Source of the DNA: an uncultured virus (IMG/VR IMGVR_UViG_2718218029_000001)
Lineage: Duplodnaviria; Heunggongvirae; Uroviricota; Caudoviricetes
DNA: 20,128 nt
IMG/VR virus record: IMGVR_UViG_2718218029_000001
Span: 62,001 to 82,128 of that record
Strand: one strand, 5' to 3'
The notes beneath the pieces are model-generated. The model did not search any database. It was not told where the DNA came from and saw nothing but the letters and a program-made list of their open reading frames with translations. The position numbers were made by a program, and so were the translations under genes. Shown piece by piece: positions 2,747-19,453 of this stretch. Numbering within the stretch: the first letter of the stretch is position 1; the number at the start of each line of letters is the position of its first letter.

Positions 2747-3925
2747 ATGATTAAATTTGATACAAATGTTTTCAAAAACTTTACTGACGCACGTGAAAAG
2801 TACGCACAATTGGTGAAGAACGCTGCCAAGCCCGAAGAGCAACAACAGGGTTTTACTGATATGATGGACGCTTTGGGTGAAGATACACTTTCAGAAATTA
2901 AGAACCAAGTTCACGCTCAAACCGAAGATTACTTGGACGCTCGCCGACACGACCCCAAGATGTCGAACGAAGAAGTGAAGTTTTTCAATGAGATTAAGAC
3001 AGATACTGGATTTAAAGAACCTAAGTTATTGCCTGAAACGGTTGTTACTGAAGTGTTCGATGACATGGTTCAAGCCCACCCGTTACTTCAAGCGATCGGT
3101 TTGCAAAACCAAGGTATTAGCTTGAAGATTATCCAATCAGATGCTTCCGGAGTAATTGGCTGGGGTAATATTTTCGGCGAAATCACTAGTCAATTAGATG
3201 CTAAGTTCAAGGAGACTAAAGCTGACCAATCCAAGGCAACCGCGTTCTTGGTATTACCAAAGGACTTAAGCGACTTCGGCCCATCATGGATTAAGCAATA
3301 CGTAATCACCCAAATTACTGAAGCCTTTGCGGTCGGCGCTGAAACTGCATTCTTGACTGGTGATGGGAATCAAAAACCAATTGGCTTAAACCGTTCCGTC
3401 AAGGAAGGCGTAGCTGTGACTGGCGGCGTATACCCTGAAAAGGAATCCGCAGGAACGTTGACGTTCGCTGATACCAAGACTGCTGCTAAAGAACTAGCTG
3501 GTATGATCAAAGAATTATCCACTAAAGAAAATGGCAAGCCGGTTGTTGCCAAGGGCAAGACTGTCATGGTCATGGGCCCCGGCGAATCATTAGATGTGGA
3601 AGCACAATTTATGGTTCAAAACTTAGCTGGCCAATTTGTCACTGCCTTACCATTTGGATTGACGATTATCGAATCTGAATTTGCGCCTGAAAACAAGGTG
3701 ATTGCATTCGTTCAAGGTCGCTATGATGCATTCCAAGCCGGTCCATTGAAGATTCAACCATACGACCAAACGTTGGCACTTGAAGACATGGACTTATACA
3801 CGGCAAAGCAGTTCTTCTATGGTAAGGCTAAGGATGACAAGGCAGCTGCGGTTTACGACTTGAAGCTTGCTACTCCTGGTACTACGACTACTGAACCAAC
3901 GACCGGCGGTGACACGGGAAAATAG
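2747..3925 (+). CDS. Major capsid protein, HK97 fold
   Basis: 392 aa after the protease, SD AGAAGGA. Helical N-terminal scaffold-like region, LLPETVVTEVFDDM..HPLL, AFLTGDGNQKPIGL, YTAKQFFYGK. Ends in a Thr/Pro/Gly linker. Confidence 0.95.
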   Translation: MIKFDTNVFKNFTDAREKYAQLVKNAAKPEEQQQGFTDMMDALGEDTLSEIKNQVHAQTEDYLDARRHDPKMSNEEVKFFNEIKTDTGFKEPKLLPETVVTEVFDDMVQAHPLLQAIGLQNQGISLKIIQSDASGVIGWGNIFGEITSQLDAKFKETKADQSKATAFLVLPKDLSDFGPSWIKQYVITQITEAFAVGAETAFLTGDGNQKPIGLNRSVKEGVAVTGGVYPEKESAGTLTFADTKTAAKELAGMIKELSTKENGKPVVAKGKTVMVMGPGESLDVEAQFMVQNLAGQFVTALPFGLTIIESEFAPENKVIAFVQGRYDAFQAGPLKIQPYDQTLALEDMDLYTAKQFFYGKAKDDKAAAVYDLKLATPGTTTTEPTTGGDTGK

Positions 3926-3944
3926 CGACCCCGGACACCGGGGT
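3916..3944 (+). other. Programmed -1 ribosomal frameshift signal at end of capsid gene (G_GGA_AAA + stem-loop)
   Basis: In-frame heptamer GGGAAAA at 3916-3922 immediately before TAG, a 5-nt spacer, then a 7-bp hairpin ACCCCGG-aca-CCGGGGT at 3928-3944. Confidence 0.85.
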
Positions 3945-4059
3945 AACTAAGCCTACCGCGAACAGTACCGTAGCTGAGATTACGGCTTGGTTAGATGCTA
4001 ACGGAATTGACCACACTGGAGCTACGTTGAAGGCCGATTTACTAGCATTAGTGGGGTGA
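3922..4059 (+). CDS. -1 frame C-terminal capsid extension (45 aa), HeH/LEM/SAP-like domain; fused product about 437 aa
   Basis: Translates IATPDTGVTKPTANSTVAEITAWLDANGIDHTGATLKADLLALVG*. The frame is closed by TGA 3910-3912 upstream and has no usable start codon. It fills the capsid-to-connector gap. Confidence 0.8.
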   Translation: MATPDTGVTKPTANSTVAEITAWLDANGIDHTGATLKADLLALVG

Positions 4060-4063
4060 TTAA

Positions 4064-4369
4064 ATGGCAGATGAAAAAGTGAATCCATTATTGGAACAGT
4101 TTAAACAGCGAATGAAGATTTATCACAAAGCCGAGGACGCGAATTTATCGCGAATTCTGAATGCAAGCCAGAAGCGTATCACCGATATTACTGGTATTGC
4201 CAGTAACGCCGGTGATGATGTGTATGACGAGCTAGTTTTAGAACGAGCACGATACGCTTACAATGACCAAGTCGAGTTTTTTGACGCTAATTTTTTGGAC
4301 GACTTATTGTCTGCATCCTTGACCAGCTATGAACCGGGGGATGATGAAGATGAACCGACCGGAGTTTGA
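4064..4369 (+). CDS. Head-tail connector/adaptor (HK97 gp6 / SPP1 gp15-like)
   Basis: 101 aa helical protein, LLEQFKQRMKI...EDANL..IL, ELVLERARYAYND..EFF..NF. Position after capsid; SD GGGGTG. Confidence 0.85.
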   Translation: MADEKVNPLLEQFKQRMKIYHKAEDANLSRILNASQKRITDITGIASNAGDDVYDELVLERARYAYNDQVEFFDANFLDDLLSASLTSYEPGDDEDEPTGV

Positions 4370-5576: not shown

Positions 5577-6182
5577 ATGTTTGTAGGATATAAACGATTA
5601 AAGATTCAACCATTTGCCGAAGACGGCACGAAAAAAGGTGACCTGATTATTGTTGAAGGACAGGCACACAAAGGGGCTACGACCACTGCTGAAATCAGTG
5701 GCTTAGCTAAAGACCCAGTGAAAGTACCGGGGTCTAATATCGATTACTATTTGTCACGTCAAGGCTTGGGTGACGCCAAGGTAGCACTCGGTATTTTAGA
5801 TTTACCGGAAGCTAGTGCTGACCTATTGGCTGGTTTCCGTGTCGATGATGACAAGATCAGCTATGGTGGTGAAGATACGTTGCCACCATATTGCTCAATT
5901 GAAATGGAATCCAAAGAAGACACTGGTGAAATTGCGTTAGTTGGTTTCTTCAAGGGAACATTTACGCGGGATAAGATTAGCTTGAGCACGCTGGATTCAT
6001 CTAAATCGTTTACGCCAGAAGCTGATGCCTGGACTTTTACGCCAATTAGTTCGATTGCCACTGCTACTAACGGCGAAGTGATGCAGAAGTTTGTGGGCGA
6101 TGCCACTAAGGATGCAACGACTGTTACGAAGTTTGAAAAGCAATTGTTTGATCCAAATGGTACGGCGAGTAGTAACGGTTAA
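5577..6182 (+). CDS. Major tail (tube) protein
   Basis: 201 aa, SD AAGGAG. MFVGYKRLKI, EISGL, PPYCSIEMES, LVGFFKGTF. Syntenic position before the chaperones and tape measure. Confidence 0.88.
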   Translation: MFVGYKRLKIQPFAEDGTKKGDLIIVEGQAHKGATTTAEISGLAKDPVKVPGSNIDYYLSRQGLGDAKVALGILDLPEASADLLAGFRVDDDKISYGGEDTLPPYCSIEMESKEDTGEIALVGFFKGTFTRDKISLSTLDSSKSFTPEADAWTFTPISSIATATNGEVMQKFVGDATKDATTVTKFEKQLFDPNGTASSNG

Positions 6183-6429
6183 GAGTATTACATTAACAGC
6201 GGATAAACCGTCTATTTCAGTAGGTGCAACAAGCACAATCACTTCAACAGTACTTCCTGATAACGCTACAGACAAAACAGTTTTATTATCAGTTGATGAC
6301 CCTGCCGTTGCAACGTTAACGGGAAACACGTTGACAGGTATTAGTGCTGGTGTTGTAACAGTGATTGGCACTGATGCAACAAAGCAAGTCACAGGGACAG
6401 TTAAAGTAACGATTACTAAAACAGAATAA
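6157..6429 (+). CDS. Ig-like (Big_2-type) domain in the +1 frame of the major tail gene; probable tail decoration or extension
   Basis: VTVKSITLT...ISVGATSTITSTVLPDNATDKTV..SVDDPAVATL...TGISAG...V.VTI matches the Big_2 pattern. It overlaps the MTP stop and has no SD before ATG 6157, so the true start or mode of expression is uncertain. Confidence 0.8.
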   Translation: MVRRVVTVKSITLTADKPSISVGATSTITSTVLPDNATDKTVLLSVDDPAVATLTGNTLTGISAGVVTVIGTDATKQVTGTVKVTITKTE

Positions 6430-6438
6430 AAACACTTT

Positions 6439-6480
6439 AAGTCGCCGATAAATCAACAATACCAATTGGGGCGGCTTTTT
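6439..6480 (+). terminator. Probable intrinsic terminator/attenuator after the major tail module
   Basis: AAGTCGCC pairs with GGCGGCTT (one G-U) across a 23-nt loop and runs into a T tract. Confidence 0.55.
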
Positions 6481-6500
6481 GTGTATGGAGGGAAAAGACT

Positions 6501-6815
6501 ATGAGTACACCACTAAAGATGGAATTACTTATTGATGGTAAAAAGCAGACCTTCACGGAATCGTTCATTCCGGCAGGCCGTATCTTGGACGCATTGGACT
6601 TAATCGAAAACGATAACTCAGATCGTAAATTGCGTGATGTTTTTGAAGAACGAGTAGCATTTCTATCCAAAGTATTTACTAACCCGTTAGTGACAACAGA
6701 AGCAATTTGGAATGGTTTCAATGCGATTGGCTTTGAAGACCATATTTTTGAACTTATTTGTAAGGTTGCAAATGTAAACCCAAAAAAGCTACAGATGGCG
6801 ACAACACCGGAATAA
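6501..6815 (+). CDS. Tail assembly chaperone (lambda gpG-like)
   Basis: 104 aa, SD GGAGG, located between MTP and tape measure. Contains ...NPKK slippery codons near its end. Confidence 0.85.
   Translation: MSTPLKMELLIDGKKQTFTESFIPAGRILDALDLIENDNSDRKLRDVFEERVAFLSKVFTNPLVTTEAIWNGFNAIGFEDHIFELICKVANVNPKKLQMATTPE
6779..6788 (+). other. -1 frameshift site of tail chaperone (overlapping C_CCA_AAA and A_AAA_AAG)
   Basis: Sequence AAC CCA AAA AAG in frame; the -1 frame is open from here to TAA 7058-7060. Confidence 0.88.
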
Positions 6816-7060
6816 CAATCAAAGAAGCTCGCAAAAGTGTGTTATCAGCAGTCGGCGTAATTGTTGAGAACCGAACTGGCTATACACTATCGAGCGTATT
6901 AAATGATGTTGATTTTCAATTGTTGTCGCAAATAATCGAAGCAACGACCGAACAGACTCAGCAGACTGAAAGTGGGACCCGAGTTAAACCGGGAACTGTG
7001 GGTGTAAATCCTGGTAATCAGCCTGTTATGAGTCTTTTTGACTTTGCTAGAAAATCTTAA
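6788..7060 (+). CDS. Tail assembly chaperone frameshift extension (gpT-like part of G-T fusion, about 186 aa total)
   Basis: -1 frame reads ATDGDNTGITIKEARKSVLSAVG...FARKS*, contiguous with track ORF 6839..7060, whose GTG lacks an SD. Confidence 0.82.
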   Translation, partial: ATDGDNTGITIKEARKSVLSAVGVIVENRTGYTLSSVLNDVDFQLLSQIIEATTEQTQQTESGTRVKPGTVGVNPGNQPVMSLFDFARKS

Positions 7061-7078: not shown

Positions 7079-10000
7079 ATGGCAGATGAAGTATTAGGCC
7101 GCATGGTCATCGAGTTAGGGCTGGATCACGCTGCGTTTGGCAAAGGTTTAACCGGTGCTAAACGTGAAGTTAAGTATGCAATGGCTGAGATGAAATCATC
7201 AATGGCTGTACTCGGTCAATCAGGCCGCCAGTTTGACGTCCTATCAGCTAAGTCTAAAGGCTTGTCACAAGTAATGATGAGTCAGCAGCGGGTTGTTGAA
7301 AAACTGGGTAAAGCGTACAAGGATTCGCTGGTTGATGGTAAACCAACCGCACAAACAGCTAAGTTAGCAACTCAATTGCAGAATGCCAATGCTAAATTAG
7401 CCTCATTACAAACTCAGTACAAGAATAATGCAGCGGCAATGGCTAAAGCACGTGTTGAGCAAACTGGTTTTACCGGTGGTTTAAATAAAGTTAGCAAGGC
7501 CGCTGTAGCGACTGGTACATCGATGAAGAACATCGGCTCAACGATGACCAGCAAAGTTAGCGCCCCAATTGCGGCTGGTTTAGCCATTGCAACTAAATCC
7601 GCTATCACTTTTGATTCGCAAATCAAGTCCATGGGGCCTCTGCTGACTAATGGGGGCGCGGTTACCGCTAAGTACCGGTCACAGTTGGATCAGTTGGGTG
7701 ATGCATCTAAAAAGATGTCGATGAAGTACGGTGTCTCGACTACTGAAATCAACAACGGCATGGCGGAACTTATTCGGCGTGGTTACACGACTAACCAAGT
7801 TCTAGGCTCAATGCCGTCTATCTTAGATGCAACCATGGCTTCCGGTGAAGATATGGGTACGGTCATGAATGCCACAGCGTCAATCGTTGAACAGTTCGGG
7901 TTAAAGACTAACTCAACGGCTGGGACGATGAAGAACACTCAGCGGGTTACCGATTCGCTGACATACGCGGCCAATGCAACTGCGGCTGGCTTCGGTGATA
8001 TGTCTGATGCGATGAGCTACGTCGGGCCGGTTGCATCTAGTTTGGGTCTCAGCGTTGAACAAACTGCGGCGGCTGTTGGTGAGCTTAGTAACCAAGGAAT
8101 CGAAGGCCAAAAAGCTGGGACTAATTTACGTGGTATGCTGACTAGTTTGATTAAGCCAACCAAGCAAAACACCGAAGGATTCAAGAGTATGGGCATTAGT
8201 TCGAAGCAACTGGCCCATGACTCACACGATTTACCGCAACTAATTGATGATATCACACATGGCACTAAGGGCTGGTCAAACGCTGAACGTGGTAAGGCCT
8301 TAGCCCAAGCATTCGGACGTGAGAACCAAGCTGCTGCTAACGCATTAGTTAAGGCCGGTTCTAAGAGTCTGCGTGACTTGACTAAAGATACTGAGAACGC
8401 TGGTGGTGCGACTAAGAAAGTTGCCGAGCAAATGAGCAATACTTCGGCAAATAATGTCAAGAAACTGATTGCGTCATTACAAGTGCTAGGAATTGAAATC
8501 GGTGAGAAGTTAATTCCAAAACTAACACCATTAGTTAAGAAAGCCACGGATATGGTTCAAGGTTTTTCAAAGATGGATGATGCCACTCAGAATACAATTA
8601 TTAAGTTTGCCCTATTAGCTGCTGCTGGTGGCCCAGTATTGAGTATGCTGGGTAATATCGTCGGTGGATTTGGAACATTTGGTGGCGGTATTGTTAAAGT
8701 TATTAGCGCTACCGCACAATGGCACGCGAAGAATCAAGCAGCTAAAGAATCACTCGCGATGTTAAAAGGTGCGACTGATGCCACTAGTGGCGGTTTCAAA
8801 GCGTTCAAGGGTAGTGTTGATACTGTAAATGGCTCAGCATCAACGGCTAAGTCAACATTTGGCTTGCTTAAAGGTGCCTTTACGACGGCCGAAGCCGGCG
8901 CCGGTGTATTAGGAACCTCATTAAGTGTGACGGGTGCGGCGGTGACCGGTGTTGGTTTGGCAGCTGTAGCCGGTGTGGCTTACTGGCAACTCTATGGTAA
9001 AGAAGCGGCCGCTAGCGCTGCACGAACACGGCAGTGGGGTTCAGATGTCGGTGAACAGGCTGATTCTGCACTGACTAAGTTCAAGGGATTTAGTACTAAC
9101 GCTAGTGCGTCATTGACGGATTTTGAGACAGCAAGTCATACAAGCACTAAGAGCGTTGCCAAGGATTTTGGCGATATGTACACTGAGATGGAGAAGGATT
9201 CCAAAGACACTATCCAGCAGATGCAGAAGGATATGAAGGGCCTGCCCGACTCTGTTCAAGGTGACTTGAAAAAGGATATTGCTGATCGCAAGAAGCATAA
9301 TGCTACGGTATTGGCCGATGCTAAGGAAAATTATAATAACGCGGAAGCAATACTCAAAAACCACAATGGCAAGATGTCTGGTTTAAGTGATACGGAACGA
9401 ACTGCATTGCTCAATAGCCAACGTAAAATGAATAGCGATGAGATTAGCCTACTAAAAATTGGTGGAAGTGCTAAGAAGAACGTTCTAGCTGCATTGAATG
9501 GGGATATTGGTAACATGACCCGTAAGCAACGTGATACGACCATTAATCAATTGACGTCTTCAATGCAGAAAGAAAACAAGCTTTACAATGATCAGAGCCA
9601 GCAGATCAAGTCCATGTACGATAAAGGTGAAATTTCTGCATCACAATATGGCAAGGCAATGACTGACCTGCAAGCTACCCACAAGTCAACTATAGATGGT
9701 ATGGCCGCGGCAATCTATAAACTGGATAAGGCGAACGGGGCTTCGAAAGCCCAAATTACGCAGGATTTACTAAATGTTGGCTACACTTACAAGCAAGCAG
9801 CGGCGATTGTAAAACGGCAAAATGATGACATGAGTAAGAGTACATCCTTGGTGGTTGCTGAAACTGGCAATATGAGTAAGAAGTCTAAGGCGGCAGCCGA
9901 TACCTGGAATAGCTTAGTATTTGATTCCAAGACTGGAAAAGTTAAGACCAATGCACAGGGCGAAGTCAATAAAGCTGCTAAATCTAAGGACAAATGGAAC

Positions 10001-11623
10001 CAGATGAAGCTACTGGTTAAACAAGGAAAGATGAGCTCCAATGCCGCGGCCATGGTTGGGGTTGCGGCTGTTCAGACCAAACGCTGGGATGGTTTAACGC
10101 TTAAAGAGAAACAGGCGATGATTAAGTCTAAAGGTGGCGATGATCTAGCCGGGCTAATCGAAAAGGGCAAACAATGGGGTAAGTTTACCCCAGCCGAAAA
10201 GAAGGCCATCATTACTTCCAAAGGTGGACCAGAACTCTTAGGCGTCATGACTAAGGCTCAAACTTGGAATAAGTTAACGATGGCTGAGAAGCGGGCAGTC
10301 TTAAAGGACAATGCGTCGCCAGCCATGAAGCAAGCTACGATTGGTATTAAGGATTGGAACAACTTAACGCCACAAATGAAGACGGTCATGGCTAAAGCTA
10401 AGGGTGCCGAAGATGTTGCGAAAGGCGTTAAAAACCTTAAGGATTGGAATAGCTTACCAGAACGTGAAAAACGGTTAATTGCAAACGACAAGGGCGCTAC
10501 GGGAATTATTAAGAAGGTAACTGGTAATTATAAGGCTTATCAGAATTTACCAAAAAACGCTACTAAGAATTTACTTGCTAAGGACAATGCTAGCAAGAAT
10601 GCTGGTAAAGCTAAAATTTCAGTTGATAAGTTTGGCCGAGCTAAGGTAACTGGTAAGGTACTTAAGGCTACTGATAAGGCGTCTGGTCCTGCCAAGAGCG
10701 GTAAAAAGGGACTAGATAAATTTAATTCAACCAAAATGCAGACTAAAACTGCAAAAGGTAAGGATTCGGCCTCAGGTTCAATGAACGGTGCACGTAAATC
10801 GGCAATTAAATATAACGGCGTTAATATGGCACTCAAAACTGCTCGTGGACATGACGCTGCATCTAGTCCAATTAATGGTGCTCACCGGTCACTTGATCGA
10901 TACAACGGGGTAGGCATGCGTGGAAAAACAGCTCGCGGATATGATTCAGCAAGCGGTGCTATGGGACGCGCTAAAGGTTCGTTAGGTCGCTACAATGGAA
11001 CCGGTATGCGAGACAAGACTGCTCGTGGTCACGATGGCGCTTCTGGTCCAATCAGTAGCGCAATCCGTACTCTAAGCCACTGGAATGCAATGGGGAACGT
11101 GACTCACTTCATTACAACTGTTTTTCGTAAAATTACTCGGCACGCAACAGGTACAACAGGTACCGATGGTAATCCAATCATTGTTAATGACGAAGAAAGT
11201 TCAGTATACCGTGAAGCTGTCAAGTATCCCGGGCATCCAGCGTTTATTCCACACGGACGTAATGTCTATCTGAATGCACCAAAAGGAACGCAAGTTATTC
11301 CAGCGGGATTAACGGCCAAAATGTTTGGTGTCTCACAGTATGCTGCTGGTACTATTCCGGCTAATTCATCAATTATCCAAGCTTCGAAAGCCATCAATGA
11401 CTCAATTGGCGGAGATAATACCACAATCAACTATAACTTGGGTGGTAGCGACAGTACACAAGCAATCGTAGCGGGTCTGGAAGCTATCCTGAATAAACTT
11501 GATGACCAACAACCAACATTTGAAGTGCACAACGACATGATTGGTGAAAAACTGCGGACTTTGATTAAACAAAAGGATTCACGGGAACACAATTTAAATC
11601 GATTCTTCCCACAAGGAGGTTAG
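7079..11623 (+). CDS. Tail tape measure protein
   Basis: 1514 aa Ala/Gly/Lys-rich helical protein, SD GGGAGG. Has a TP901-type core (ELSNQGIEGQKAGTNLRGML), hydrophobic segments, 30-aa aromatic repeats and C-terminal HATGT...YAAGT motifs. Confidence 0.96.
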   Translation: MADEVLGRMVIELGLDHAAFGKGLTGAKREVKYAMAEMKSSMAVLGQSGRQFDVLSAKSKGLSQVMMSQQRVVEKLGKAYKDSLVDGKPTAQTAKLATQLQNANAKLASLQTQYKNNAAAMAKARVEQTGFTGGLNKVSKAAVATGTSMKNIGSTMTSKVSAPIAAGLAIATKSAITFDSQIKSMGPLLTNGGAVTAKYRSQLDQLGDASKKMSMKYGVSTTEINNGMAELIRRGYTTNQVLGSMPSILDATMASGEDMGTVMNATASIVEQFGLKTNSTAGTMKNTQRVTDSLTYAANATAAGFGDMSDAMSYVGPVASSLGLSVEQTAAAVGELSNQGIEGQKAGTNLRGMLTSLIKPTKQNTEGFKSMGISSKQLAHDSHDLPQLIDDITHGTKGWSNAERGKALAQAFGRENQAAANALVKAGSKSLRDLTKDTENAGGATKKVAEQMSNTSANNVKKLIASLQVLGIEIGEKLIPKLTPLVKKATDMVQGFSKMDDATQNTIIKFALLAAAGGPVLSMLGNIVGGFGTFGGGIVKVISATAQWHAKNQAAKESLAMLKGATDATSGGFKAFKGSVDTVNGSASTAKSTFGLLKGAFTTAEAGAGVLGTSLSVTGAAVTGVGLAAVAGVAYWQLYGKEAAASAARTRQWGSDVGEQADSALTKFKGFSTNASASLTDFETASHTSTKSVAKDFGDMYTEMEKDSKDTIQQMQKDMKGLPDSVQGDLKKDIADRKKHNATVLADAKENYNNAEAILKNHNGKMSGLSDTERTALLNSQRKMNSDEISLLKIGGSAKKNVLAALNGDIGNMTRKQRDTTINQLTSSMQKENKLYNDQSQQIKSMYDKGEISASQYGKAMTDLQATHKSTIDGMAAAIYKLDKANGASKAQITQDLLNVGYTYKQAAAIVKRQNDDMSKSTSLVVAETGNMSKKSKAAADTWNSLVFDSKTGKVKTNAQGEVNKAAKSKDKWNQMKLLVKQGKMSSNAAAMVGVAAVQTKRWDGLTLKEKQAMIKSKGGDDLAGLIEKGKQWGKFTPAEKKAIITSKGGPELLGVMTKAQTWNKLTMAEKRAVLKDNASPAMKQATIGIKDWNNLTPQMKTVMAKAKGAEDVAKGVKNLKDWNSLPEREKRLIANDKGATGIIKKVTGNYKAYQNLPKNATKNLLAKDNASKNAGKAKISVDKFGRAKVTGKVLKATDKASGPAKSGKKGLDKFNSTKMQTKTAKGKDSASGSMNGARKSAIKYNGVNMALKTARGHDAASSPINGAHRSLDRYNGVGMRGKTARGYDSASGAMGRAKGSLGRYNGTGMRDKTARGHDGASGPISSAIRTLSHWNAMGNVTHFITTVFRKITRHATGTTGTDGNPIIVNDEESSVYREAVKYPGHPAFIPHGRNVYLNAPKGTQVIPAGLTAKMFGVSQYAAGTIPANSSIIQASKAINDSIGGDNTTINYNLGGSDSTQAIVAGLEAILNKLDDQQPTFEVHNDMIGEKLRTLIKQKDSREHNLNRFFPQGG
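9905..11083 (+). repeat. 13 degenerate 30-31-aa (90-93 nt) tandem repeats in tape measure
   Basis: W/F/Y recurs every 30 aa (twice 31) from TGG 9905 to TGG 11081. The last units share YNG..M..KTARG.D.AS. Confidence 0.85.
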
Positions 11624-19369: not shown

Positions 19370-19453
19370 TGCCCCAGGCAGGATTCGAACCTGTACATTG
19401 TTTCCAATACAGCGACCTGAACGCTGCGCGTCTGCCAGTTCCGCCACTGGGGC
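19370..19453 (-). tRNA. tRNA-Leu(CAG), CCA not encoded; likely prophage attachment site
   Basis: Reverse complement GCCCCAGTGGCGGAACTGGCAGACGCGCAGCGTTCAGGTCGCTGTATTGGAAACAATGTACAGGTTCGAATCCTGCCTGGGGCA. 7-bp acceptor stem, anticodon arm CAGCG-TTCAGGT-CGCTG, long variable arm, TTCGAAT loop, discriminator A. Confidence 0.97.

Follow-up and report, generated by a model that had tools for sequence, protein, structure and literature searches.

A probable programmed -1 frameshift adds a helix-extension-helix domain to the major capsid protein of a temperate Lactiplantibacillus phage and its relatives

The 3' end of the major capsid protein (MCP) gene was analyzed in a 20,128-nt stretch of DNA from an uncultured virus (IMG/VR record IMGVR_UViG_2718218029_000001, positions 62,001 to 82,128; hereafter the window, whose numbering is used throughout), which is the structural module of a temperate Lactiplantibacillus plantarum siphophage. 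On comparison with relatives, a programmed -1 ribosomal frameshift very probably operates at the end of this gene (rough probability 0.85), and would append a linker and a helix-extension-helix (HeH) domain to part of the capsid protein. This reading is supported because slip site, hairpin and -1 coding signature are conserved among relatives whose MCPs are 51-100% identical to that of the window, and a capsid-HeH polypeptide is supported because relatives carry a homologous domain fused in frame. A preliminary description of the same DNA, made from its letters alone, had proposed a hidden -1 shift that yields a ~437-aa capsid form with a linker and an HeH-type domain; conservation, in-frame fusions, and the family and predicted fold of the domain uphold that proposal.

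The MCP gene (2747-3925, + strand) ends in the codons ACG GGA AAA TAG. The last two sense codons supply the slippery heptamer G_GGA_AAA (3916-3922, + strand) in X_XXY_YYZ register, and the zero-frame stop TAG (3923-3925, + strand), which ends the short form, adjoins it. After a spacer of 5 nt follows a hairpin (3928-3944, + strand) with the arms ACCCCGG and CCGGGGT and the loop ACA. The preliminary description had located heptamer, register and terminal codons correctly; of its "perfect 7-bp GC hairpin" the seven pairs and the spacing stand, but one pair is A-U and only six are G-C. The -1 frame is closed upstream by TGA at 3910-3912 and is open across 3913-4056, and a shift at the heptamer would add 45 new residues (IATPDTGVTKPTANSTVAEITAWLDANGIDHTGATLKADLLALVG, IATPD...ALVG). 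These comprise a Thr/Pro/Gly-rich linker of 15 residues (IATPDTGVTKPTANS, 3922-3966, + strand) and an HeH domain of 30 residues (TVAEITAWLDANGIDHTGATLKADLLALVG, 3967-4056, + strand) with helices encoded at 3970-3999 and 4030-4053. The frame then stops at TGA 4057-4059 (+ strand), within the GGGGTGAT ribosome-binding site of the next gene. Upstream of the HeH core the -1 open reading frame (ORF) contains no ATG, GTG or TTG, the earliest TTG and GTG lying 104 and 128 nt past the capsid stop; the upstream closure, the 45 codons and the lack of a usable start are as first described. The predicted shifted product has 437 aa and 47.3 kDa, the unshifted one 392 aa and 42.8 kDa, and predicted -1 frame peptides of the long form include IATPDTGVTKPTANSTVAEITAWLDANGIDHTGATLK and ADLLALVG. 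The 138-nt "gap" between the capsid gene and the next gene is filled entirely by the -1 frame, and in the near-identical GenBank phages PM411 and H1-Guo this gap carries no annotation. An Rfam scan gave no match in the capsid 3' region.

Capsid-gene 3' ends of relatives were gathered from three sources: one-genome-per-species contigs (4 loci), IMG/VR (37 loci with the window capsid protein as query, and the best 80 of 300 relatives with an 18-sequence capsid profile as query) and GenBank phages. Four of the 128 loci (L001-type handles are used below where needed) were left out, two with an early frame break in the capsid gene (L030 and L052) and two that run off or break early (L036 and L037). 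L030 and L052 are one and the same IMG/VR contig, whose 1-nt frame break near codon 38 of the capsid gene is an assembly error or marks a pseudogene. The 124 usable loci include many contigs fetched twice, and counts are therefore given for distinct 550-nt capsid 3' regions (n = 76).

In 52 of the 76 regions an in-frame slip site leads into an HeH domain in the -1 frame, and in 3 the domain is fused in frame; a heptamer with a long non-HeH -1 extension occurs in 2, a heptamer with a short extension of 19-23 aa only in 7, and neither heptamer nor extension in 12. None of the 76 encodes HeH in the +1 frame or in an independent ORF that has a start codon. All 52 regions of the -1 HeH arrangement hold an in-frame slippery site within the last two or three codons, which places the slip site beyond chance. 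The sequence is G_GGA_AAA in 33 of them, G_GGA_AAC in 14, G_GGG_GAA in 4 and C_CCA_AAA, followed by GCG and the stop, in 1; the stop directly adjoins the heptamer in 51 and lies one codon further on in the remaining region. MCP identity to the window across this set runs from 100% down to 51-52%. An alignment of relatives' capsid 3' ends had been suggested at the outset as a check, and it found the heptamer conserved in these 52 of 76 regions, which also have compact GC-rich hairpins, and the -1 coding signature conserved in the lineages compared below.

Several lineages keep the heptamer with a -1 extension of 19-23 aa and no HeH. These are the Pediococcus stilesii-type loci L009, whose hairpin is strong, and L041, together with L038/L039, L115 and L122-L124. 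In place of HeH, L038 has a separate 65-aa ORF (MYRVIRQFRDG...), which resembles ORFs found past the capsid gene in L008 and B025. In L. plantarum prophages L106-L116 (e.g., L106:2358-2504) the cassette of slip site, hairpin and HeH is almost identical to that of the window beside an MCP that is 55% identical, which points to a recombination junction near the capsid 3' end.

Downstream RNA folding was computed per lineage over the first 40 nt past the slip site. The fold had -11.9 to -17.7 kcal/mol in the 12 tabulated lineages with HeH, against 0 to -6.6 kcal/mol in 12 relatives without heptamer or extension; L038, with a heptamer and a 19-aa extension, had -11.9 kcal/mol, and lineages with FN3-like or short extensions had weak predicted structure in this stretch. 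Hairpins of unrelated sequence begin about 5-7 nt past the slip site across lineages, with arms ACCCCGG / CCGGGGT in the window type, CCCCATC / GATGGGG in L033, CGCCGTT / GACGGCG in L042, CGCCTCA / TGAGGCG in L010 and CCCCCG / CGGGGG in L094 and L117. By this comparison the hairpin appears to be kept as structure rather than as sequence. As the hairpins do not align, this structural conservation consists of per-lineage folds and not of formal covariation.

The hairpin could also be a transcription terminator or an RNA-stability element, with the open -1 frame a coincidence. A consensus scan does call the hairpin at 3944-3928 together with CGCTATTTTC terminator-like on the minus strand, but the T run there is set apart from the stem, all neighbouring genes are on the + strand with no minus-strand gene nearby, and the + strand has no T run past the hairpin. 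A chance ORF is moreover excluded by the match of the extension to the family phrog_12526 (E = 3.5e-18) and by the coding signature, and this explanation is regarded as exceedingly improbable.

Two further features recur near the site. A CCCC or CCC run about 5-8 nt past the slip site (3923-3945 in the window) is found in nearly all lineages, and so is the junction peptide K-[IS]-x-[STAV]-P. Both extend to lineages with FN3-like or short extensions and weak predicted hairpins (L092, L099, L115, L122, L123, L093 and L038). Run and peptide may reflect an RNA signal, a linker constraint or shared cassette ancestry.

The substitution pattern of the extension follows the -1 frame. Third positions of that frame take 22 of the 34 differences between the window and L007, and 23 of the 35 between the window and L032, with ratios of nonsynonymous to synonymous differences per site (pN/pS) of 0.25 and 0.17; the ratio is 0.38 against L024 and 0.27 against L033. 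Overall, pN/pS of the -1 frame is 0.17-0.40 against the four closest lineages and 0.25 up to 0.70 in more distant pairs, a pattern that indicates purifying selection on the frame. In most lineages the frame opens only 10 nt upstream of the capsid stop. An antisense ORF over the same stretch (3888-4088, 66 aa) was considered and rejected; its frame is not open in L024, L010, L094, L081 and L117, five of the ten lineages checked, and the substitutions follow the + strand -1 frame instead.

These data bear on whether the extension is a decaying remnant, left behind when an ancestral in-frame capsid-HeH gene was hit by a frameshift mutation of 1 nt, with production of the extension lost and the hairpin there by accident. 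In-frame fusions are indeed known in relatives, and some lineages have truncated 19-23-aa extensions. However, the -1 ORF is open, with the signature of purifying selection, across lineages with MCP identities of 51-65%, the X_XXY_YYZ register is kept by four different slip-site sequences, and hairpins have been replaced by others at equal spacing, all in a set of 52 distinct sequence variants. Decay is accordingly rated very unlikely, and a programmed shift is the preferred account of the conserved arrangement.

Fusion of the domain to capsid protein is seen without recoding in several relatives. In Latilactobacillus phages TMW 1.46 P2 and TMW 1.1365 P2 (59% MCP identity) the capsid ORF continues in frame through a linker into ...LTVDQIKAKLTELGIEFDNKLNKADLLALLPKE, and in homologue P0015 (79% MCP identity, 439 aa) the in-frame tail reads ...TGGNTESTFDPAGSVKPTDTNTITEITAWLDAHSIDHTGKTAKADLLALVPAE; by sequence the P0015 tail is plainly the window's extension, fused in frame. 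Among the best 120 of 758 capsid protein homologues in the database, 11 have precomputed matches to both PF05065 and PF12949, and P0015 is a twelfth fused form. The two Latilactobacillus phages and P0015 resemble the window in having a homologous capsid protein with a linker and a C-terminal HeH domain. They differ in that no recoding is involved and every subunit carries the domain, whereas in the window its dosage would follow the frameshift rate.

The domain could alternatively be made as a free small protein, unfused to capsid, from a non-canonical start such as AUA 3922 or by re-initiation. An SD-like (Shine-Dalgarno-like) GGCGGTGA ends 9 nt upstream of AUA 3922 in the window, the phrog_12526 profile is 53 residues long, and free-standing versions are annotated elsewhere. 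Streptococcus pyogenes prophage 315.2, S. agalactiae phage LYGO9 and Leuconostoc phage phiMH1 have A2-like capsid proteins (40-46% identity) and a +1-frame HeH peptide (L129:1488-1629, L132:1488-1662 and L131:1491-1670, respectively). The 315.2 and LYGO9 records annotate it as a separate 42-53-aa ORF, whose GTG start falls within the 3' arm of a conserved hairpin immediately past the capsid stop; phiMH1 carries no annotation for it, and no start is obvious there. Against a free product among the window's relatives, there is no conserved start in the -1 ORF across lineages, most having no ATG, GTG or TTG ahead of the domain and the sporadic GTGs being unconserved, and the lineages with G_GGA_AAC, G_GGG_GAA or C_CCA_AAA lack both the AUA and the SD-like motif. 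A free protein also leaves unexplained the heptamer in 52 of 52 arrangements, the hairpin, and the in-frame fusion in close relatives. Such a product is considered unlikely, and frameshifting is favoured.

The frameshift would proceed as follows. Most ribosomes would terminate at TAG 3923-3925 and yield the 392-aa capsid protein. A fraction would be held up by the hairpin, 5 nt further on, while tRNA-Gly occupies GGA and tRNA-Lys occupies AAA. The two tRNAs would then re-pair one base back (GGG, AAA), so that the -1 frame resumes at AUA (Ile); a single P-site slip of tRNA-Lys at the stop is an alternative route that would give an identical protein. The adjoining stop perhaps also stimulates the shift; it need not adjoin the heptamer, since some lineages place a sense codon between the two. 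The long form of 437 aa would then consist of the capsid body, a flexible 15-residue Thr/Pro/Gly linker and the 30-residue HeH. A ClpP-like prohead protease would trim both forms, to predicted masses of ~33.3 and ~37.8 kDa, which presuppose a mature N-terminus at residue 82, placed by alignment to and transferred from the annotated mature peptide of B025. Both forms would co-assemble, such that sub-stoichiometric subunits bear HeH. We infer the shifting, its rate and the incorporation of the long form into virions as steps of this proposal.

The preliminary description had also pointed to an SD-like GGCGGTG at 3905-3911. The motif is present and its end lies 4 nt upstream of the heptamer; optimal SD spacing for the dnaX type is ~10 nt. 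It was rejected as a frameshift stimulator, being absent in L117, L081, L106 and R10.1 and so not conserved among frameshifting lineages.

Nearly the same protein would arise from correction at the RNA level, if RNA polymerase slipped on the A run and some mRNAs lacked one A or gained two, which brings the extension in frame. An A run is present at the site, but it has 4 A, and just 3 in the G_GGA_AAC lineages, and transcriptional slippage needs longer runs. RNA-library contigs (4 runs from 4 studies) cross 3600-4300 without indels, a weak observation in that contigs drop rare variants and may contain DNA. Polymerase slippage is judged most improbable here, and slippage by the ribosome is preferred.

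The window phage has a second recoding site. The sequence A_AAA_AAG at 6782-6788 lies in frame in the tail chaperone ORF (6441-6815, + strand; PF23857, E = 1.5e-14), and an open -1 frame spans 6764-7060 immediately upstream of the tape measure gene (7079-11623, + strand), as in a canonical frameshift site. This canonical tail-chaperone site was counted in favour of the -1 shift in the capsid gene.

The extension belongs to a recognizable domain family. It aligns to phrog_12526 with 66.2 bits, residues 9-47 covering profile positions 11-49 of 53. Pfam HeH (PF12949) was matched by 9 of 10 aligned homologous extensions (E up to 0.1, best E = 2.5e-10), and the extensions of L081, L094 and L117 exceed the Pfam cut-off of 28.9 bits with 30.1, 39.5 and 40.0 bits, respectively. 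An AlphaFold2 (AF2) model built on the 10-sequence alignment has helices at residues 19-28 and 39-46 with a 10-residue extended segment between them, at a predicted local distance difference test score (pLDDT) of 91-92, and the first 10 residues (linker) have a mean pLDDT of 55. The peptide is thereby predicted to fold as a helix-extension-helix, which bears out the pattern first read from its residues. The full-length P0015 model has a helical N-terminal delta domain, an HK97-like body, a linker (378-399) with pLDDT below 50 and helices at 409-418 and 429-434.

Structure searches returned little beyond the family itself. A Foldseek search of PDB with the 47-aa model yielded nothing at E <= 0.001. 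It gave weak matches (E = 1.3-10) to Rho N-terminal, SAP and CDNF/MANF C-terminal domains, which for a domain of this size carry no significance. The search against BFVD gave one marginal match to a 53-aa protein (E = 4.6e-3) and weak ones to phage "Rho N-terminal" and HeH proteins. A profile of the extension matched PDB sequences marginally at residues 90-120 of FluMu gp35 (2OUT, E = 0.025).

The HeH domain is probably displayed on the outer surface of the virion on its flexible tether, given that it also ends capsid proteins of other families, a tail tube protein and Ig-repeat proteins. An outer location is favoured because the C-terminus of HK97-fold shells faces outward, because the domain is tolerated on every subunit in the in-frame relatives, because HeH is interchangeable with FN3 or Ig-like modules, and because HeH also ends tail tube proteins. 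Like the Ig-like domains added by frameshifting, it might serve as an accessory surface domain, with weak binding of a protein or envelope ligand, or with contacts between subunits. Contact with packaged DNA, one of the roles first suggested, is unlikely on sequence grounds. The window's HeH core is acidic (net charge -3, pI 4.2; relatives -3 to +2), for which reason DNA binding is disfavoured, and the domain is also found on tail tube and Ig-repeat proteins.

Several points weigh against the frameshift reading or narrow it. Support for the window phage and its HeH relatives comes from sequence comparison and models, and we infer the outward location and function of HeH. The loci are the best matches to the window capsid protein, so the sample is biased and phylogenetically clumped. 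The z-score of the 75-nt fold at the window site is only -1.86, and RNAalifold on 12 slip-site regions gave no consensus structure, the hairpins not being alignable because their sequence and loop length differ. L009, L038, L115 and L122-L124 hold the heptamer with 19-23-aa extensions or weak downstream structure. The window peptide itself reaches only 16.9 bits against Pfam HeH (E = 0.005), under the cut-off. Finally, a free peptide is a viable form of the HeH domain, as annotated in the streptococcal phages.

The domain is not confined to capsid proteins of the window type. Matches to HeH by tblastn were found in 52 GenBank phage records; in KC5a, Lj771, phiAQ113 and L. helveticus phages they lie under the annotated capsid gene, as judged by position in any frame. 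The domain is also carried by P0136, a phrog_422 major head protein; by P0137, a tail tube protein (phrog_88 / PF06488), at its C-terminus; by P0133 (232 aa), with Ig repeats recognized by eye and no Ig call from Pfam or PHROGs; and by P0126, P0128 and P0134 (103-116 aa), with a small N-terminal domain. The 337-aa capsid protein of Lacticaseibacillus phage R10.1 shows no BLAST similarity to P0136 or to the capsid proteins of the window and phage A2, and its gene ends GCC CCA AAA GCG TAG, followed by a hairpin and an unannotated -1 HeH frame. In place of HeH, the 116-120-aa -1 ORFs that follow G_GGA_AAA or C_CCA_AAA in L092:2361-2708 (57% MCP identity) and L099:2379-2738 (53%) have weak fn3 matches (E = 0.044 and 0.005, respectively).

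Because HeH, FN3-like and, in A2, Ig-like domains follow like slip sites, the sequences indicate that slip site, stop, structure and linker act together as a cassette whose payload can be exchanged. A wider reading is offered tentatively, and we hold it at somewhat less than even odds. HeH would move among at least four BLAST-dissimilar capsid families, tail tube proteins, Ig-repeat proteins and small capsid-adjacent proteins, and would travel as a portable recoding cassette of slip site, stop, hairpin, Thr/Pro linker and domain. How many copies a virion holds would depend on whether the domain is fused in frame, reached by a -1 shift, or encoded in a +1-frame or free-standing ORF. The virion would gain from it weak, dosage-sensitive binding of a cell-envelope or matrix ligand, or subunit contacts, with effects on adsorption or particle stability.

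The remainder of the window agrees with a siphophage structural module. Over positions 2747-4369, nucleotide identity is 96.6% with Lactobacillus phage PM411 and 93.9% with Lactiplantibacillus phage H1-Guo. On the + strand the capsid gene is preceded by genes for a portal protein (845-1987; PF04860, E = 2.9e-24) and the ClpP-like prohead protease (1962-2726; PF00574, E = 1.8e-28), and followed by those for a 101-aa head-tail connector-like protein (4064-4369; phrog_749, E = 3.4e-30, with a weak Phage_connect_1 match, E = 0.015) and a tail tube protein (5577-6182; PF04630). The MCP has an HK97 fold with an N-terminal delta domain; it matches PF05065 (E = 5.3e-11, 42.9 bits against a cut-off of 24.2) and the phrog_10 major head protein family (E = 4.5e-48). 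A phmmer search of the window capsid protein against PDB sequences gave no match, and a profile of 18 capsid relatives gave weak HK97-type matches only (E = 0.002-0.004); the AF2 model of P0015 matches RcGTA, HK97, T5 and encapsulin shells (E = 5e-11 to 1e-7), with E = 1e-10 to 1e-8 for the RcGTA and HK97 capsids. Several structural genes of PM411 (L001 4104-6623) bear implausible names, such as FkbH, ATP-dependent DNA helicase Rep, Kup potassium uptake protein and LolC.

The tail tube gene is overlapped by a +1-frame ORF (6082-6429) with a Big_2 Ig-like domain (E = 1.5e-8), an ATG at 6157 and no obvious SD, labelled "lipoprotein releasing system transmembrane protein" in PM411; it may represent a +1 recoding extension of the kind reported for Listeria phages, or else an independent ORF. 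The sole Rfam match in the window is a tRNA gene (19370-19453, minus strand; RF00005, 44.6 bits), which may be a phage tRNA or the flank of a host attachment site.

Dozens of prophages from Lactiplantibacillus, Pediococcus, Atopobacter and related hosts retain the HeH payload, which is reached from four different slip sites, and the capsid 3' position may alternatively hold an FN3-like domain or an in-frame fusion. Phages with the domain on none, a fraction or all of their subunits form a natural dosage series that could reveal the role of small surface domains in the virion. Gene callers and both GenBank relatives overlook the extension, and elsewhere the domain is labelled "hypothetical protein" or "Arc-like repressor". 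Since the hosts are easily handled bacteria of foods and probiotics, the prediction is directly testable.

Among known domains, the eukaryotic and bacterial HeH/LEM/SAP and Rho N-terminal domains share the two-helix helix-extension-helix fold predicted for the window domain. They mostly bind nucleic acid or BAF and are basic, and the acidic window HeH is unlike them in this respect. The families phrog_12526 and phrog_1539 ("Arc-like repressor", e.g., phage 77 ST77p06, whose C-terminal part matches the window HeH at E = 2.8e-5) and FluMu gp35 (2OUT, a marginal match) share the HeH sequence family. As in the window, the phage 77 and streptococcal HeH proteins are encoded directly after the capsid gene. 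The phrog_12526 small proteins, phrog_1539 and FluMu gp35 are free-standing ORFs with their own starts, unlike the window extension.

The primary A2 study reportedly found gp5B, the extended capsid form of that phage, to be essential, as its title has it. The end of the A2 capsid gene reads ACC CCA AAA GCG TAA and is followed by a beta-rich, 86-residue -1 ORF after the shifted Lys codon. As described in the available part of PMC5009743, frameshift-extended capsid forms occur in A2, T3/T7 and Listeria phages, the extension being Ig-like in T3 and A2, where it is made by -1 shifting in A2, and non-Ig in T7. The A2 pair gp5A/gp5B, as far as this account goes, resembles the proposed window pair in a -1 shift at the end of an HK97-type capsid gene of a temperate lactic-acid-bacterium phage, with a short major and an extended minor form, the forms of the window being known from sequence alone. 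Both have an X_XXY_YYZ heptamer near the stop, the C_CCA_AAA GCG stop form of A2 recurs with HeH in L081 and R10.1, and the junction peptides are alike (KSVTPDGVT in A2, L048 5578-5610, and KIATPDTGVT in the window). The two differ in that the capsid proteins have no significant BLASTP similarity (best E = 0.94), and that the window heptamer directly abuts the stop whereas A2 has GCG between. The payload of A2, again from the portion available, is Ig-like from C_CCA_AAA, and that of the window is 45 residues with a two-helix HeH from G_GGA_AAA. From the same partial sources, gene 10A/10B of T7 and T3 and the Listeria phages A118 and A500 (-1) and PSA (+1) also use recoding at the capsid 3' end to make a second capsid species, as proposed for the window, and differ from it in capsid lineage, shift site and payload. 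For an A2-like phage, the accessible part of the BH1 paper points out the CCCAAAA site and names a 79-aa product of ORF7 among the virion proteins. The available part of PMC5009743 mentions no HeH payload for capsid frameshifts, and a search of full-text literature, with subscription journals largely outside its reach and sources partly available, found no HeH appended to capsid by frameshifting. Capsid-end frameshifting itself is known from these systems, and what is new here is the HeH payload in a capsid-end frameshift of the A2/T3 type.

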